From Trueperaceae bacterium (GTDB lineage Bacteria; Deinococcota; Deinococci; Deinococcales; Trueperaceae), in assembly GCA_965215565.1 (NCBI GenBank), contig CBDCDZ010000004.1, positions 2,336,001 to 2,400,000 of the forward strand: a stretch of 64,000 nucleotides of DNA, given 5' to 3'. The notes under the pieces were generated by a model, which was not told the DNA's origin, did not search any database, and saw only the letters and a program-made list of their open reading frames with translations. Shown in pieces: positions 131-56,780 of this stretch (position 1 is the first letter of the stretch; every line of letters begins with the position of its first letter). The position numbers and the translations under genes were made by a program.

Positions 131-263
131 TAGCAATTAACATAAGTATTGATTGGAATAGCGCAAGTATCATTCTCAAATGTGCGTGCTGCTTACGAAG
201 TTTTCGCAAAGCGAAACGGTGTTCTACATCGTGAGAGCGTCTCAAACCAAATGATACTTGCTA
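131..263 (+). mobile_element. MITE-like element, family 1 (110-bp scaffold plus 23-nt insert at 193-215)
   Basis: TA-TAGCA...TGCTA-TA ends; near-identical to 56644-56753 and to the reverse complement of 42300-42409 except for the insert TTACGAAGTTTTCGCAAAGCGAA. Confidence 0.85.
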
Positions 264-334
264 TAGAACCTTACCGCTACCAGAAACAGCGCTCGCAAGT
301 TTTTGAAGTAGGGAAGCTTTTGTAAGCTCTCTTA

Positions 335-5071: not shown

Positions 5072-5879
5072 AAATCATCTCCAAGTTGTGGGAAGTCTTT
5101 CGCGTAGGTCTCATGACCTTACGAAGTGCATCCGTGCTGCGATACGTGCGGTTGGGTCAGGGGACGCGCAGCGGCTCAAAGCGAGCGCCAACATGTAGGC
5201 GAGTATAACGTGTAAAGACGTGGGAATCGCAAGGGGGTCCATCCGCCGTTCTCTCATACGGATTGCGGGGGCGCTTCACCCTCATGAAATCCTCTAAACG
5301 TCCTTGCAGACGACGCCTAAATCTTATGGTCAGGTCCTGTGGACGAACGCCGCTCTTTCGTGAGGGTGCACCCTCACTCTTCACCTTTTCTTAACATGGG
5401 CGAGCGGATTCGTTCGTCTCGAGCCCTAGCGGTTAAAAGCGCACGCCCTAGCGCTGACGATATGCTACCTTAATAGTTGCATGTTCGAGACCGCCACGTG
5501 TGCACCGACAGAATCGGGAGGCTCGTCCGTTCAGCGTCGGGGTCATTCGCCCTTCTGGTTGGAGAGCACCGCCGAAGGCTACAGTCCAGCCTTGGCCCAG
5601 TGGGACGGCTTAGTGGTGAGATAATCGGTGGTGAGATAAACTGATAAGATATCCGAACATGAATTGCCACTGTCCGCAGGTGAGTCTCGCTGATACGCCT
5701 AAACGTGCGGTGAACTCGAGCTTACAGCTACGGGTTAAAGACCGCGCCGTGAACGCATTCAAACGCGACGTGTACGAGCGAACATAGCAAATATAGCGCG
5801 AATAGCGCAGAGTGATGATTTGATGACCCATCTTCTTTCACAGCACGCGGTTAGAGCACCGCAGCGCGACTAACGTTTC

Positions 5880-9561: not shown

Positions 9562-9907
9562 CTTTACGTTCTCCTCTACTCAGCACTTAGGTGTTGACAA
9601 GGTAGTTTGAGCACCGTAGTCACGCCGCTACATATCGCGGAACTCGCTGGGGCGGACGCCAGACCACGCTTCCTTGACTGAGAGTGTAGCAAATCAACCT
9701 CAGCTCGACCGTATGTAAAGGATGAAGGGCGCGTTTAGATTGCTCCGCTCTTGGTCACCGGCAACTCACCACGTACTGTGCGAACAGTGACACGATATCT
9801 GTAAGAGGTTGAGCAAGGGGTACAACCCCCTGTTTATCATATAGAAACGGCGCAAGAAGCGCACGTTAGCATTCGACTTGAAACTACTACCTCTATGTAA
9901 ATACCTA

Positions 9908-10148
9908 TAGCAGTTCCACTTATCGTTGCTTGAACGGAGTTATTCCCGGAGGGAAACTTCGTAAGCGAAGCAACACTTCTCCGCAGATCTCAGCCTGTCA
10001 AGGCTAGCGGAATTTCATCACCTAAAGTGCGTGCTAATTACGAAGTTTTCCGATTACGAAGTTTTCCGCAAGAAAGGAAACGATGTTCTTTTTAGTGAGA
10101 GCGTTGCTTCGCATGGCTTCGCCCAAGCTGACCAGATGATAGCTGCTA
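9908..10148 (+). mobile_element. MITE-like element, family 1, expanded to 241 bp by nested micro-inserts
   Basis: TAGCAGTTCC...GACCAGATGATAGCTGCTA ends; removing four insert blocks leaves about 107 bp that aligns with the 61330-61440 copy. Confidence 0.8.
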
Positions 10149-10698
10149 CTACTTATGTGAATACGAAGCGAGACGCCTTCTGCTAACCAGATACCAGACG
10201 TGCCGAAAACTCGTCAACATCCACGTCTCGCACTTATCCGGTAGATGTATGTGACAATCCTACGCGGGGGGTCTCTTCTCGTGAGGTATCTTGTAGAGCG
10301 TTTCGCTTAGTTTTGTGAAAGCACCTCTTCTCCTGGTGGACGTTTCACCGAGTCGCCTTTTTACTGCTACGAAACACCGCACGTGACACTGCGCGAAACA
10401 CCACTACGAAACAACTGTGAAATATTCGCCTCTGTAAAGTAGCTGGAGGATGCTTATATGAAAGGTAATCATATGAATGTAGCGTTAGAAATATGGTTTA
10501 CACTAAGGTAAAGTACGGGCGGAAGAGATTGCGCTTAGGTTGAGCGGCGAGACTTATCTAAAGCTGAGCGAGGGATTTAGGCGGCAGGGCTAAGCTGCGA
10601 AACTGAGCAGCAAAGCTGGGCAGTGAGACTTCAATAGAGAGTAGGCTCATGAGGCTGAAACGGAAATATAACGGCGCGAGCATTGTGAGCGTCAAGCG

Positions 10699-13396: not shown

Positions 13397-13492
13397 AGCA
13401 GTTCCAAAACATACTGAGACGGATGAGCGCAGCTTAACGGAACCTCATCTCAGAATGTGCGTGATTTTGTCTCAGTGTGTCGTAGAACTGCT
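13397..13492. repeat. Palindromic derivative of MITE family 1 (two left ends, inverted)
   Basis: AGCAGTTCCAAAACATACTGAGAC ... GTCTCAGTGTGTCGTAGAACTGCT; the interior matches the family 1 left half. Confidence 0.7.
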
Positions 13493-13712
13493 GACGGATT
13501 AGACCCGAGCCAACGTTTAGGTAAAGCAGACGAACCGCCGTCCCGGTCCACTTCGTAAAATTCTATCGCTCCTCTCACCCGTAAAGGCGGTAGGGTAACG
13601 TCGGTATGAACGCACACTCCTCTCAGCTTACGTGCTCCGGCGGCGAGCCGCCTCTCACATCGAAACGTTCGGCATTGAAACGCTCAGCATTACAACGTTC
13701 AAGAGGTCCGCA

Positions 13713-15544: not shown

Positions 15545-15740
15545 TACACTGTCCGCTAAAAAATGAACCATGTCATTCTGAACGTAACGAAGTGGAGTGA
15601 AAGAATCTCGTCTTCCATTCCCAACTAGCCGAGATTGCGAGTTACGAAGTTTTGACATAGTCAACCGAGACCCTTACGCCTTCGCCGAAGCTTCACGTCA
15701 CCCCGTTCCCGCTGGCTACTTCGTGAACGGGGTGACAACA
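15545..15740 (+). repeat. REP-like/MITE element, family 2, with a 23-nt insert at 15642-15664
   Basis: Aligns with the reverse complement of 28238-28397 (GCTAAAAAAT..CATGTCATTCTGA.CGTA...GAAAGAATCTC...GAGATTGCGAG..CGAGACCCTT); right boundary uncertain. Confidence 0.75.
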
Positions 15741-41830: not shown

Positions 41831-42364
41831 ATGCTCCGCCGTCACGCTCTACCTTGTTCCCCACATAATGATTTACATGACGACCCGCACAATGACCTGC
41901 GCGACAGCTTTTACAGTAACCTCGTATCACGCTGCACCCTCGCCCTACTCGAGCGCTATTTCACCTGGCGCACGCTCGGCCTGCTCGCCTCTTGTCTGCG
42001 CCTAAGCAAACAAGAGGTTGAGACGGTCGTTCGCTACGCCGGCAGCTTGGAGGGACTCGAGGACCTCAGCTTGCAGGATTTAGAAGGGAGTGGCGTTAGC
42101 GAAAGCGCGGCGCAGAAGCTCTTCTACTTCGCGCAGTGGGACAAGCTTCAGCGTCACCTAGAATGCTACGACGCCCTGCCGGAGGACGCTGACCTCAGCG
42201 CACTTCTCGCTACCTTGACACCTATCCGCGAACGTCACTTTCGGCGCGCGCACATAAGTGCGTCGCTCATCGCTAGCTACAGGGCGTACCTCCGACATAT
42301 AGCAAGTATCATTTGGTTTGAAACGCTCTCACGATGTAGAACACCGTGCAGCACGCACATTTGA
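41831..42364 (+). CDS. Hypothetical protein (possible helix-hairpin-helix); C-terminus encoded by the inserted MITE
   Basis: GSLEGLEDLSLQDLEGSGVSESAAQKL resembles an HhH motif; last about 21 codons lie in 42300-42409. Confidence 0.55.
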   Translation: MLRRHALPCSPHNDLHDDPHNDLRDSFYSNLVSRCTLALLERYFTWRTLGLLASCLRLSKQEVETVVRYAGSLEGLEDLSLQDLEGSGVSESAAQKLFYFAQWDKLQRHLECYDALPEDADLSALLATLTPIRERHFRRAHISASLIASYRAYLRHIASIIWFETLSRCRTPCSTHI

Positions 42365-42409
42365 GAATGATACTTGCGCTATTCCAATCAGTACTTATGT
42401 TAATTGCTA
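42300..42409 (-). mobile_element. MITE-like element, family 1 (110 bp)
   Basis: Reverse complement differs from 56644-56753 at only about 3 positions; TA on both sides. Confidence 0.88.
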
Positions 42410-43857: not shown

Positions 43858-44015
43858 TAGCACTTCTAGAACTTACTGAGACAGATTGCCGCAGATCTCT
43901 GTCCGCAAGGACTAGCGGGATTTCATCTCTGAAAGTGGGTGCTCATCAATGCTTTCTACAGTGAGAGTGTTGCTTTGCAAAACTTACGTACACTCAAACC
44001 AGATGATACCTGCTA
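43858..44015 (+). mobile_element. MITE-like element, family 1, with two micro-inserts (43897-43921, 43970-43990)
   Basis: TAGCACTTC...CAAACCAGATGATACCTGCTA; 158 bp minus inserts is about 111 bp. Confidence 0.8.
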
Positions 44016-45730: not shown

Positions 45731-46065
45731 AAAACCCCCTGTTACAGTTCGGTCCGTATCGCGCCGTGCGTTCTAAAGCGTTGAGCGAGTGTACGCAAGT
45801 CGGTGTTACACCGCCGTTCCTGAGCGAGAACCCAAGTTCAAGTTCTTGTCTGCAGAAGCTAGGTGTGAAGTTTTCCACATAAGCGTACCATGAGAAGCGC
45901 GTTGTAGCCCGAACGATGAAGGAAGAGGTAATACGAGGTTGAGTTTACGGAAGAGTTGGCGGCACTGCCCACAGTCACACGAGGGGGTGCTGGGTAACCT
46001 TCTAGATAGATTTGGAGCAAGCCCCAACCCCTCGTGATCAACAAGAATTTCGCAAAAGGAGACCT

Positions 46066-48788: not shown

Positions 48789-51700
48789 TCAGGGGGTCAG
48801 GAGCGCGGGCTCGTCGGCGACGGGCTGCCTGTCGTCTTGGAGGGGCTCGAGTACCTCTTCGGTGTTCAGCACCGAAATCGCGTCCTCGCCGCCCTCCGCG
48901 TTGCCAAAGGGGAGCGCGAGGCTGCCCCAGTCATCATGGTCACGCAAGGTGCTCAAGTCGTCGTCGTCGTTGAGATCGAACTCGAGGTTGCTCTGCGCCG
49001 CGCCGTCGTTGTTGAAGTCGACGAACGCCGCACCCCGCCCGAGCCCACCATTTTCATTTAAGCTGCGTTCATTGAGAGGCGCGCCGCTGCCGTCCGAGTA
49101 GTCGATAACGAAATCGTCGCCGAAGGGCGAGTTGGCGAAGTCGCGGAGGTCGCCCTCGAAGTAGCGGCTGTAGAGGTAGCGCTCCCCGGCGGCGTCGCCC
49201 GTCGCGGGTCCGATGCCCGCCACGGTGTAGAGGTAGTTCATCACGCTCAGGTAGTTGGGCTTGTCGTTCGTGTCGTCGTCGCCACCATGCTCCAAGCCTA
49301 AGTTGTGCCCGAGTTCATGCATGAACGTACCAGCCTGAAAGTTCGCCATAACCGCTTCGCTGTAGCCTAAGTTACCCAGGGTCACGAAGAAGTCGTTGCC
49401 GCCCACCTCGCCCCTGCCCACGGAGCCGGGCGCGCCGTTCACCTGCTGCGACAGCGCGAACACCGCGTAGTGAAACACTTGGCGGCGCGTGATGTCCATG
49501 TATTCGGCTTTGATCTCAAAGAAGTTGGCGTGTCCTTCGCCCGTTTCGAAGAAAGCAATGCCTTGACTGAGGGGCACTACGGGTCTGCCGCCGCCTAAAT
49601 TATAGGCGTCCGGCGAGAACGACGCGCTGAAGAGTGTGCCCGCGTCGAGGTGAAGGCTGATGTCTTCCTTCGCAAAGGCGGCGACAACCTTATTCAGCGC
49701 GGCGCGTTGCGGCACTACGCCCGTGTCGGCGATGTTCATATAGTCCACCTCGACAAAGATGTCGGACTGCGCGGTGCGCGCGCCCATTGCGAAGAGGTCG
49801 AGCCCCGCGAAGGTGCCACCCGCGGCTTCGGCGCTGTCGGGGATGCCGTCGTCGTCGTCGTCACGCGCGCCATTAGGCACGTCGTTCGGACCGCCCGCCG
49901 TCGCGAAGGTGTTCAGGCTCCAGTCGTCCGCAGCGTCCGTGTCGGTATTGTCTTCGTCTCTCGCTAAAGATTCAGCGCCGCCTAACGCGGGCGCACCGCC
50001 GCCGCCCCACGCGCCCGCGCTCGCGGGCTCCTCAGCGCTGTTGCCAAAGCGCACGAAGTCGAGCGTCGCGCCGTCCTCTAGGAGTTCGGCGAAGCCGTCC
50101 TCACTCCAAGCGGGCACGGCGTCGCCCTCACGCACGTGCACGTGACGCGGGCCACCAAACATCTCATCGTCCACTTCGCTGATGATGAGCGCGTAGCCGC
50201 CCGCGGAGATATTGAGGGGCGGCAGCGAGAAGACTGCGTTGCCTCTCGCTCTGAAAGGCGAGGTGCGCCCGCTCGAGGGGCTGCGCAGCGCGTAGTCCTC
50301 CAAGTTGAGGGTGTCATCCGAAGCGTTGTAGACCTCTACCCAGTGGGCGCTGCCGGGACCTGAGTTGCTCACTTCGGTGATGACGAGCGTCGGCTCGGCG
50401 GCGCTCGGCGCGTCCGGCTGGACCACCTCGACGAACTTGCTCGCCGTCGCGCGCGCCCCGTCGTCGTCCTCTAAGGTGAGCGTGACGGTGTAGTCACCTG
50501 CTTCTTCGTAGACATGCTCGACTTGGACGCCTTCGCCCGCTTCGCCGTCGCCGAAGTCCCAGGTGTAGGCGGCGACGCGGCCGTCCGGGTCTGTTGAGGC
50601 GGAGGCATCGAAATTCACAACGAGGGGCACGTCGCCCTCACTGGGCGCGAAGCTGAAGAGAACGCTCGGCGCTTGATTGGGCGTTTCGGGCGGCGGGGGC
50701 GGCGCGGCGCTCACCTCGAAGGTTTTCTCTGCTTGGGCGCTCTTGCCGCCGTCGTCGGTCACGGTGAGCCCGACGGTGTAGGTGCCCGCTTCGGCGTAGG
50801 TGTGGCTCACGCTCTCGCCCTCGCCCACTTCGCCGTCGCCGAAGTCCCAGGTATAGGAAACGACGCGGCCGTCCGGGTCTTCCGAGGCTGAGGCGTCGAA
50901 CGCGCCTGCTAGTTCGTCAAAGGTTGCGCTAAAGGCAGCTTGGGGGGCGCTGTTCTCCGGCGGCGTCTGCGCCACCTCAACGGACTTCGTTACCTGTGCA
51001 CTCGCGCCCTCGTCATCGGTGACGGTGAGGGTCACGTCGAACGTGCCCGCGGCCGCGTAGGTGTGGCTCACGCTCTCGCCTTCACCTGTTTCACCGTCGC
51101 CGAAAGTCCAAGTGTAAGCCTCAACACTACCGTCCGCATCTTCCGAGGCGGAGGCGTCAAAGCTCACTGACAGCTCAGCCGCCGAAAAGGTGAAGTCGGC
51201 GCTCGGCGCTTCGTTGAGGTCGGGCGTGCCGGGCGGAGACGCGCTCACCACCTGAACGGACTTCTCCACTGTGCTGCTTTTACCCTCGTTATCCGTAACG
51301 GTGAGCGTGACGGCATACGTGCCCACCGCTGCGTAAACGTGACTCACGCTTTCGCCCTCGCCCGTTGCGCCGTCGCCGAAGGTCCAAGTGTAGGCGGCGA
51401 CGCTACCGTCCGCGTCCGCCGAGGCGGAGGCGTCGAACGTCACACTCAACGGGTTAGCCTCAGCCGCCGAAAAGGTGAAGTCGGCGCTCGGCGCTTCGTT
51501 GAGGTCAGGCGTGCCGGGCGTGTCCGGCGCGTCGCTCACGATGATAGTGGCAGTGGCGCTCTTGCTGGAGTCGGCGACGCTCGTCGCCGTAAGAGTGTAT
51601 TCGCCGGACGCAGTCGGTGCGGTGTACGTCGCCGCTGTCCCGTCCGCCGTGAAGCTCGAGTCCCCGCTGCTCGCCGCCCACGTCACCTCGGCGTTATCCG

Positions 51701-52403
51701 TCCCCATGACCTCTGCGCTAAAGGTGCGGCTCGCTCCCGGCTCGAGCGTCTCGCTCGCCGGAGTGATGCTCACGCCGATTTCGCTCACCGTAATGGTGGC
51801 CGTGGCGCTCTTGCTGGAGTCGGCAACGCTCGTCGCGGTGAGCGAATACGTACCTGGTGCATCCGGCGCGGTGTACGTCGCCCTTGCGCCGTCGGCCTCT
51901 ACCGCGCCGCCCTCCACTTGCCAGGTGACGCTCTGGTCGTCCGCTTCGGTCACGGACGCCGTGAAAACTTGCGTCTGCCTCGGCGCGAGCGCCACCACAC
52001 CTGGGCTCAGTGTGACGTTGACCTCGCCCGGCGGCAACACGATGGGCTCCGACACGCTGACCTCTACCGTCTGCTCGGCGCTACCTAGCTCATTGGTTGC
52101 ACGGAGCGTGTAGAGCGTGCTTTCGCTCGGCGAGACGACGACGTTGTCGCTTCCCGTTACGTCGCCCAGTCCCGACGTAGCCGGTTCTGATGCGAGCGTG
52201 ACCTGGGGCGGCGGCTCGCCGGTGACACGCCAACTCAGCTTCGTGGAGCCTCCCTGATCGAGCGTCTCCGGCTCAGCGCTAAACGCGCCGATCTCCGGCG
52301 CTTGGTCTGGGATAAAGGGGGCGGAGGTCTCCTCGTCGTCCGAACAAGCGACGAGAGAGATGAGCAGGAGGAAAACTAGGTAGAACCAGCGAATATGCAA
52401 CAC
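48789..52403 (-). CDS. Large surface lipoprotein: Ig-like repeats, four PKD domains, lamin-tail-like domain, metzincin-type protease domain
   Basis: Lipobox LVAC; 4x FDASAS.D.DG....YTW.FGDG; LVITEV..HWVEVYN; HELGHNLGLEH followed by SVMNY Met-turn. Confidence 0.9.
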   Translation of the reverse strand: MLHIRWFYLVFLLLISLVACSDDEETSAPFIPDQAPEIGAFSAEPETLDQGGSTKLSWRVTGEPPPQVTLASEPATSGLGDVTGSDNVVVSPSESTLYTLRATNELGSAEQTVEVSVSEPIVLPPGEVNVTLSPGVVALAPRQTQVFTASVTEADDQSVTWQVEGGAVEADGARATYTAPDAPGTYSLTATSVADSSKSATATITVSEIGVSITPASETLEPGASRTFSAEVMGTDNAEVTWAASSGDSSFTADGTAATYTAPTASGEYTLTATSVADSSKSATATIIVSDAPDTPGTPDLNEAPSADFTFSAAEANPLSVTFDASASADADGSVAAYTWTFGDGATGEGESVSHVYAAVGTYAVTLTVTDNEGKSSTVEKSVQVVSASPPGTPDLNEAPSADFTFSAAELSVSFDASASEDADGSVEAYTWTFGDGETGEGESVSHTYAAAGTFDVTLTVTDDEGASAQVTKSVEVAQTPPENSAPQAAFSATFDELAGAFDASASEDPDGRVVSYTWDFGDGEVGEGESVSHTYAEAGTYTVGLTVTDDGGKSAQAEKTFEVSAAPPPPPETPNQAPSVLFSFAPSEGDVPLVVNFDASASTDPDGRVAAYTWDFGDGEAGEGVQVEHVYEEAGDYTVTLTLEDDDGARATASKFVEVVQPDAPSAAEPTLVITEVSNSGPGSAHWVEVYNASDDTLNLEDYALRSPSSGRTSPFRARGNAVFSLPPLNISAGGYALIISEVDDEMFGGPRHVHVREGDAVPAWSEDGFAELLEDGATLDFVRFGNSAEEPASAGAWGGGGAPALGGAESLARDEDNTDTDAADDWSLNTFATAGGPNDVPNGARDDDDDGIPDSAEAAGGTFAGLDLFAMGARTAQSDIFVEVDYMNIADTGVVPQRAALNKVVAAFAKEDISLHLDAGTLFSASFSPDAYNLGGGRPVVPLSQGIAFFETGEGHANFFEIKAEYMDITRRQVFHYAVFALSQQVNGAPGSVGRGEVGGNDFFVTLGNLGYSEAVMANFQAGTFMHELGHNLGLEHGGDDDTNDKPNYLSVMNYLYTVAGIGPATGDAAGERYLYSRYFEGDLRDFANSPFGDDFVIDYSDGSGAPLNERSLNENGGLGRGAAFVDFNNDGAAQSNLEFDLNDDDDLSTLRDHDDWGSLALPFGNAEGGEDAISVLNTEEVLEPLQDDRQPVADEPALLTP

Positions 52404-56555: not shown

Positions 56556-56643
56556 GTTTCCCCCTATAAAAGCTCAGTTGTAAGTATCAGAAGTTTGGTC
56601 TTTATTGGATGAGGCAGGAACCTTGATCGAGTTCGGTTGAATA

Positions 56644-56753
56644 GAGCAATTAACATAAGTACTGATTGGAATAGCGCAAGTATCATTCTCAAATGTGCGT
56701 GCTACACGGTGTTCTACATCGTGAGAGCGTCTCAAACCAAATGATACTTGCTA
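56644..56753 (+). mobile_element. MITE-like element, family 1 (110 bp)
   Basis: Near-identical to 131-263 minus its insert; TA flanks. Confidence 0.88.
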
Positions 56754-56780
56754 TAGAGGATAACACCTGTAAAATCGAGG

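Follow-up and report, generated by a model that had tools for sequence, protein, structure and literature searches.

The DNA analysed here is a 64,000-nt stretch (the window) of the genome of a Trueperaceae bacterium (GenBank assembly GCA_965215565.1, contig CBDCDZ010000004.1, positions 2,336,001 to 2,400,000), and the subject of the analysis is a short repeated unit, module A, one copy of which lies at positions 193-215. We conclude that module A is probably a non-autonomous mobile element of 21-24 nt, which would be moved or copied as a folded single DNA strand by an enzyme encoded by the host. As such, it would likely rank with the smallest mobile elements so far described; a length of about 23 nt approaches the minimum at which DNA can still be recognised and moved. 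The unit is non-coding and is laid out as TTAC-G-N-A-GT (the head), followed by a hairpin that begins with TT, has a loop of 2-4 nt and ends with AA. It is carried by three genomes of one Trueperaceae genus, namely G000, the source of the window (4.49 Mb, 58% G+C; an assembly of 4 contigs that is 99.99% complete), G001 and G002.

The evidence for a discrete unit begins with its boundaries. The copy at 193-215 occupies site GTGCGTGCTNN^A of a repeat resembling a miniature inverted-repeat transposable element (MITE), and in alignment A1, which compares the repeat at 129-267 with its siblings at 56642, 42300 and 44240, it corresponds to a single clean 23-nt gap in all three, much as the sequence-only reading of this stretch had proposed. 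The copy at 9944-9964 sits on the minus strand at a different host position, GTTGCTTCGC^A, for which four empty paralogues are present. The 30-nt left and right flanks of 144 simple copies were matched separately and then paired. The distances between paired flanks peak at 0-3 nt (528 pairs), 21-25 nt (518 pairs), 40-47 nt and 63 nt, and at least one empty paralogous site was found for 97 of the 144 copies. An empty site has the sequence X^A-Y and its filled counterpart X-TTAC...AA-A-Y; the boundaries are exact, and none of the 208 empty/filled comparisons shows a target duplication. Since the insert ends in AA and the target is not duplicated, the last A of the apparent 6-bp stem comes from the target; in this respect the earlier description of the unit had to be amended.

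A scan that uses no motif, but only pairs of exact 12-mers that abut at one location and are separated by 8-69 nt elsewhere, returned 1,650 strand-specific events. Of these, 560 are 21-24 nt long and mostly represent module A and a sister family, A', described below. For the copy at 193-215 the scan gives a shift of 0, and for the copy at 10054-10074 a 21-nt insert with 12 empty partners. In a separate comparison, the best empty partner of the copy at 193-215 has 129 nt of flank in common with it. The profile of the 208 empty sites (77 distinct 8-mers) has A at position +1 in 88% of cases. Purines at -2 (93%) and +3 (96%) and a pyrimidine at -3 (91%) are also prevalent. However, one host family dominates these three positions, and therefore we trust only the A at +1 as a target rule.

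The second line of evidence is the structure of the unit. Seven exact occurrences of TTACGAAGT are present in the window (expected number 0.47; no shuffle out of 100 gave as many) and 114 in the whole of G000. Five of the seven window occurrences (193, 9956 on the minus strand, 10038, 10054 and 15642) are directly followed by a hairpin, and the modules built on them, including the one nested within another, are as the sequence-only reading had described them. The other two heads, one of which (5119) had been listed as a weaker candidate, are read as chance matches rather than modules. Several variants of the head precede TT in G000 (GAA 88, GCA 42, GTA 15, GGA 10 and ACC 10), and the head is therefore better written as TTACGNAGT, with position 6 variable, than in the fixed form first proposed. 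For the hairpin we required a perfect stem of at least 5 bp with a loop of 2-8 nt, starting no more than 1 nt from the head. Such a stem directly follows TTACGAAGTTT at 61 of 88 sites in G000, compared with 150 of 9,869 (2%) control sites, which comprise the other occurrences of NNNNNNNGT+TTT (any other seven bases followed by GT and TTT), and with 39 of 1,180 other TTACNNNGT sites. Genome-wide, the stems are far more complementary than the controls, contrary to what would have refuted the sequence-only reading.

The 130 simple copies with a TT-initial stem of at least 5 bp show 20 distinct 5' arms, in 53 combinations of arm and loop. All 20 arms are Watson-Crick paired, with two-sided changes at the three innermost pairs. 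Of the 130 copies, 115 close the loop with a C-G pair; each of the next two pairs may be C-G, G-C, A-T or T-A but is always matched, and the outer pairs are T-A. G001 and G002 contribute the stem classes TTGGC/GCCAA, TTAGC/GCTAA and TTGAC/GTCAA. Because differing arms stay paired across copies, the stem can be said to covary. The idea that the hairpin is kept while its letters change is borne out to that extent; the changes are confined to about 20 discrete arm types and are not free variation. The loops also follow a pattern. GCA (34 copies) and GAA (14 copies) together account for 48 of the 130 loops and are closed by C-G, so that many loops are of the form C-GNA-G; TCC (12 of 130) corresponds to GGA on the opposite strand. 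The head itself can be written as AC-GNA-GT, the variable base being N. Loops of the d(GNA) type closed by C-G are described as unusually stable DNA hairpins (PMC3201870, PMC13037366). The d(GCGNAGC) mini-hairpins of these sources resemble module A in their C-GNA-G loops; as presented there they belong to the physical chemistry of oligonucleotides and are not a genomic element.

Two loci compared between species supply the direction of change. In G000 a hicA-like gene contains a module A copy, and exactly those 24 nt are lacking from its ortholog in G002 (1.5-kb region compared, 85% identity). The G000 protein accordingly has eight extra residues in frame. The G002 protein is collinear with the Pfam profile HicA_toxin (positions 2-57 of 58, 41.5 bits), whereas the G000 protein, with 23.7 bits, fails to reach the cut-off. 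The profile acts here as an outgroup, and hence the module in hicA is an insertion in G000. A hicB-like gene follows hicA in both genomes. In view of this low profile score, the G000 HicA toxin may be inactivated; in general, such units can add 7-8 codons to proteins with the frame intact. The G000 gene also differs from its G002 ortholog at the 3' end.

The second locus is the only IS1-family copy of G000 (L048:540-1360; C4:3037839-3038659), which carries a 21-nt module A. Two aligned IS1 copies from G001 run straight through the corresponding junction, GGCTT^CCCAG, without the module. G001 has at least eight related IS1 copies, on one of which the InsA and DDE_Tnp_IS1 domains were found. The hicA and IS1 loci contradict, at least in its pure form, the possibility that the module is ancestral and was merely deleted from the shorter copies. 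Together with the empty paralogues, the nested and tandem copies and the copies in single-copy DNA, they bear out the sequence-only view of module A as a very small insertion unit.

Relative to the two aligned G001 copies, the G000 IS1 element has four small inserts (21, 42, 41 and 14 nt), one of which is the module and another a GGTTAGAGCAAAGCTCA-type repeat that is present elsewhere in the genome. Three further loci (L045, L046 and L049) had to be set aside, as the module lies there within larger species-specific segments, which rules out a clean comparison. In the window itself, orthologous comparison of positions 9900-10150 showed that this intergenic repeat cluster is not conserved in the sister genomes, its flanking genes being about 80% identical.

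Module A also inserts into itself. An inner module A, in either orientation, is present in 15 of 20 outer copies with long loops. In 13 of these 15, two bases of the outer loop (GA, GG or GC) precede the inner copy, which has a run of A at its end and thus lies between N and A of a G-N-A triloop. The same arrangement is seen in the window, where the composite insert at 10038-10079 is 42 nt long and occupies the main host site. Tandem copies start at the A right behind the preceding copy. Moreover, single-copy flanks of 60 nt on both sides were found for nine of the 144 copies, about six of which are good modules.

Two other units are likewise inserted 5' of an A. The sister family A' (21-22 nt) has the form TGTACG(T)AAGT + TTGC-GAA-GCA, inserts 5' of A and also has empty paralogues. 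It consists of two GNA-type mini-hairpins, the first with a covarying stem: in the variants TGGAC-GAA-GTCA, TGCGC-GAA-GCGA and TGAGT-GCA-ACTA the stem of the first mini-hairpin compensates, while the second is fixed. The site near 43970, which the sequence-only reading had counted as module A, is a real 22-nt insert but belongs to A'. Unit B consists of TCTGAAAG and a small hairpin that varies (CCC-GTA-GGG, CTGC-GAA-GCAG or nested forms of greater length). Its position is within the head of module A, between TT and AC and again 5' of A, as at C4:663235 in G000. The sequence TTTCTGAAAG occurs 56 times in G000, and the composite pattern with B inside the head of A at 23 sites. The coordinates of the features are collected in Table 1.

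Table 1. Copies of module A, related units and host repeats. Positions refer to the window unless a genome is named.
Feature	Position	Strand	Details
Module A copy	193..215	+	TTACGAAGT head + TTTCGC-AAA-GCGAA; 23-nt insert; target A = 216
MITE-like host repeat around 193-215	159..266	+	Repeat families D3, D8, D9; alignment A1
Empty sibling host repeat	56642..56757	+	Junction 56705^56706, ...GCTAC^ACGG...; alignment A1; families D3, D8
Empty sibling host repeat	42299..42380	-	Family D5; alignment A1
Module A copy	9944..9964	-	TTACGAAGT + TTCCC-TCC-GGGA(A); 21-nt insert; exact head at 9956
Outer module A copy	10038..10079	+	TTACGAAGT + TTTCC..GGAA; GAA loop holds second copy
Inner module A copy	10054..10074	+	Between second and third loop bases (GA^A) of outer copy
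Module A copy	15642..15664	+	Stem TTGAC-ATA-GTCAA, rare in G000
Sister family A' copy	43971..43992	-	TGTACGTAAGT + TTGC-AAA-GCA(A); 22-nt insert; 2 empty partners (k-mer indel scan)
Further A' copy	45790-45813	+	
Exact head without hairpin	5119..5127	+	No stem; folding z -0.14
Exact head without hairpin	13550-13558	-	No stem; folding z +0.61
Module A copy within hicA-like gene	G000 C4:643214-643237		24 nt; gene L047:627-866 (G000 C4:643126-643365)

The 172 module A copies fall into 51 flank contexts, including a handful of singletons that represent chance matches within long genes. The largest context, with 59 of the 172 copies, is the GTGCGTGCTNN^A site of the main MITE-like host. A regular expression for this host site has 277 matches in the genome: 113 are empty, 60 hold one module A, nine hold two, and 25 also hold unit B. 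Such a concentration might be expected if the module were not mobile itself but an old part of the MITE-like repeats, the observed pattern being produced by amplification of the MITE, ectopic gene conversion and precise deletions. This explanation agrees with the fact that, within the genome, the hosts are all short repeats with a homology span of no more than 154 nt. It agrees also with the association between module and host described below. Nevertheless, we consider it unlikely. The contexts, about 51 in number, include unrelated repeats, and four exact module sequences recur in two or three unrelated contexts. Copies in single-copy DNA, in the loops of other copies and in tandem do not fit a passive part of the host repeats, and neither do the hicA and IS1 loci, both insertions by outgroup. 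In addition, the AG and GC host classes have no direct repeat that could drive precise deletion.

Several observations weigh against independent movement of module A, and some of them come from the main host. Each exact module sequence is mostly tied to one context, which implies that most copies were carried passively by the host repeat. Head position 6 in the main host tracks two upstream host bases: it is A in 14 of 15 cases after AA and C in 29 of 32 after AG. Much of the diversity in the main host may therefore come from gene conversion or in-place change and not from new insertions. The linkage of head position 6 makes any tally of independent insertions at this site less reliable, whereas the other contexts are not explained by it: across contexts we found no rule pairing head position 6 with flanking bases. 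Stem classes, for their part, are common to both the AA and the AG host lineages. With no more than two mismatches allowed over the 53-nt flank, 20 of the 60 filled main-host copies have an empty counterpart and 18 of the 60 a differently stemmed one, the median flank distance among main-host copies being 16 mismatches over 53 nt. We read this shuffling of heads and stems as the result of short gene-conversion tracts or of replacement of the hairpin only.

Further points on the same side concern age, folding and strand. The copy at C4:104823-104845 of G000 is orthologous in G001, with one stem change, so that some copies predate the split of the species and are old and static. Single copies are predicted to fold weakly as DNA (-1.1 to -4.6 kcal/mol, z from -2.1 to +0.35), and the folding tool did not predict the mini-hairpin of the head. 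In view of these energies, the case for the hairpin is built on comparison between copies and not on thermodynamics. By prediction, empty targets are no more often unpaired than the sequence around them (probabilities of 0.52 and 0.43 against 0.52). Orientation shows no bias with respect to the replication strand (85 of 172), although this is a weak test, the GC-skew extremes being oddly placed. Finally, public reads do not help to catch the module in motion: the region is present in two runs of one sample and weakly in two others, and the short-read (Logan) contigs of these four stop at the repeats (9936-10112, 13397-13434 and 15599-15665) with joints that come from paralogues, which makes present-day polymorphism unreadable.

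Taking these points into account, our preferred reading of module A as a mobile element can be put as follows. The folded single DNA strand would be the substrate, as indirectly hinted by the C-GNA-G loops, the AC-GNA-GT head and the two mini-hairpins of A'; one enzyme would make both the cut and the join; and insertion would occur directly 5' of an A, without duplication of the target. Most of the approximately 170 copies would then have arisen by hitch-hiking with MITEs and by short-patch gene conversion, and consequently only a few dozen insertion events would be needed.

The module A family is confined to one Trueperaceae genus. The pattern TTACGNAGTTTYSS has 118, 59 and 89 matches in the three genomes of the genus, compared with 0-3 per genome among 28 others from the family and order, in which a reversed control pattern is as frequent. 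When 185,579 species genomes were scanned for exact matches to one stem class, 13 places were found, all of them in two Trueperaceae metagenome-assembled genomes. A scan of metagenome contigs, also for one stem class, gave two matches (L043:270-294 and L044:1501-1524), which is approximately the chance level; both are perfect TTACGAAGT + TTTCGC-loop-GCGAAA sequences, on contigs without similarity to G000. Within the genus, stem classes are species-specific. In G000, TTAGC is absent and TTGGC occurs twice, while both are among the commonest of the G001 and G002 matches listed; TTGAC is common in G001 and G002 and occurs only once in G000. At the same time, several 23-mers do not differ at all between the three species (the TTTGCC-TCC and TTGCT-GCCT units are examples), and the TTTCAC-GCA unit is found in all three with differing head variants, even though the flanking genes are only 76-88% identical. 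This distribution fits lineage-specific bursts from conserved source copies.

The sequence-only reading had suggested looking for a co-distributed nuclease, HUH transposase or reverse transcriptase. Searches with the Y1_Tnp, RVT_1 and GIY-YIG families (TnpB, IS110, IS91 and Rep families were not searched) revealed no family specific to the three carriers, and we thus continue to infer, rather than observe, that an enzyme moves the module in trans. The results of these searches also bear on three other explanations, each of which names a particular mover.

According to the first, module A is akin to repetitive extragenic palindromic (REP) sequences or derives from IS200/IS605, and its mover is a Y1-HUH transposase (RAYT or TnpA), an enzyme that cleaves single-stranded DNA next to a hairpin. 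The module does contain TTAC, the target of IS608. However, TTAC lies inside the insert and is absent from empty sites. The head-plus-hairpin layout is also like that of tagged REPs (PMC3733652, PMC3116915). The Y1-HUH transposase family (PF01797) has no match in G001 or G002, and its sole match in G000 is a domain (residues 707-811) within a 1,319-residue methylase of the Eco57I/MmeI type. We noted no inverted doublets of the kind formed by REPINs, though doublets were not counted. All this makes the explanation very improbable. More specifically, module A shares with REP and REPIN sequences the short, extragenic, oriented hairpin with a conserved head and the large number of copies (PMC3116915, PMC3733652). 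It differs in that a RAYT/Y1 gene is absent from two of the three carriers, in that its stem is not fixed, and in that single units nest in loops, or stand in tandem, rather than forming inverted doublets. Miniatures of IS200/IS605 (PATE), which have a hairpin at each end and insert 3' of a fixed tetra- or pentanucleotide that is retained in the empty site, are a poor match for similar reasons: module A has only one full hairpin, its TTAC is within the insert, and TnpA is not shared by the carriers. Nor does it look like a MITE in the sense of a cut-down DDE transposon, since its ends are only TT...AA in place of terminal inverted repeats and the target is not duplicated.

Spread through an RNA copy and reverse transcription is the second explanation. 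The AA at the end of the insert, next to the target A, can be read as microhomology for priming. Yet RVT_1 (PF00078) has no match in G000 or G002, which speaks against a retroelement-driven repeat; the matches are in G001 only and represent group-II-like copies. Furthermore, no Rfam family reaches its threshold anywhere in the 64-kb window. We regard this route as extremely improbable.

The third explanation sees in module A the motif recognised by a small GIY-YIG nuclease that acts specifically on single strands, like those of the Ssn kind; the spread of the module would then be linked to this protein, perhaps by way of a control over transforming DNA. Ssn proteins are GIY-YIG nucleases of about 94 residues, which bind an oriented hairpin repeat only as a single strand and cut it a few bases upstream (PMC11893778). 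Their motifs (NTS/dRS3) number in the hundreds, lie mostly outside genes and, like module A, combine an oriented hairpin with a conserved 5' flank (PMC11893778); some stems of the two resemble each other (TTCCC...GGGAA). A syntenic gene for a protein with GIY-YIG as its only domain is indeed found in all three carriers (open frames of 91, 97 and 153 residues; the 91-residue frame of G000 is at L034:1474-1749, on the minus strand of C4), and in G002 one of the modules is about 150 nt away from it. On the other hand, the best relatives of this protein in the Protein Data Bank belong to UPF0213 (1zg2, 1ywl), NCBIfam has no name for it, and none of our tests places it in the Ssn family (cd10448), whose genes are typically flanked by the motif. 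Similar small genes are present in module-free Trueperaceae (G005, G016, G017 and G028), and in G000 the surroundings of the gene are free of modules out to 1.5 kb. The motifs themselves also differ. Module stems vary, whereas the activity of SsnA was abolished when the fold of the NTS was kept but its palindromic sequence changed (PMC11893778), and self-insertion of repeats is not described there. A nuclease alone also leaves insertion unexplained. Overall, we find this explanation quite unlikely, and the small GIY-YIG protein is best regarded as a putative candidate.

The closest described case is the small dispersed repeats (SDRs, especially SDR4-6) of Nostoc punctiforme and its relatives. 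In the report of Elhai and co-workers of 2008, these are said to be gene-less units of 21-27 nt, dispersed within other repeats and within each other, with a small hairpin that shows compensating changes and with no mover tied to them. We know of no enzyme that has been tied to such elements since that report. Module A is similar in that it is a dispersed, non-coding unit of 21-24 nt with about 172 copies, is inserted precisely within other repeats and its own copies, and has a hairpin with compensating changes. It differs in belonging to Deinococcota (Trueperaceae) and presumably in sequence. The features documented for module A beside this likeness are the target rule (5' of A), the position between N and A of G-N-A loops, and the two insertions into genes.

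Within the phylum, the small noncoding repeats (SNRs) of Deinococcus radiodurans are of interest. They number 295 copies of at least nine types and are described as having an 'unusual, mosaic structure' (PMC1978522). Like the repeats studied here, they are mosaics of smaller pieces; in the portion of that source considered here, micro-insertions are not named as the cause. The analogy suggests that micro-insertions might lie behind the mosaic SNRs. We found no description of such inserts in the literature on Trueperaceae or Deinococcus.

A broader view is possible but should be taken as tentative: module A, A' and unit B may all be substrates of an undescribed insertion machinery, working without a Y1-HUH transposase or reverse transcriptase, that would paste folded strands of about 20 nt 5' of A, even into genes, and they may represent a widespread class of minimal transposons. 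Whatever the breadth of the class, module A offers a well-defined system for asking about the mover, with exact boundaries, an N^A target, nesting in G-N-A loops and stem classes from three species. Also useful are two insertions of known direction, one of them in frame in a toxin gene, and the exclusion of several usual suspects.

Some additional observations were made along the way. An element of about 105 nt with inverted ends of its own (TAATCTAAACTA...TAGTTTAGGTTA) is located at the exact module A position of the main host and ends in an A run (two entries); this position may be a general insertion hot spot. The G000 gene for the methylase with the embedded IS200-like Y1_Tnp domain (L030:2708-6667, minus strand; C4:3784707-3788666) adjoins a gene for an SNF2-family helicase. 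The fusion is unusual and may be part of a defence system. In the window, positions 50407-51897 contain tandem units of about 208 nt, spaced 261-288 nt apart and 68-73% identical, and this array is followed by a second pair of units, 117 nt long and 249 nt apart (families D1, D2, D6 and D7 for the whole).

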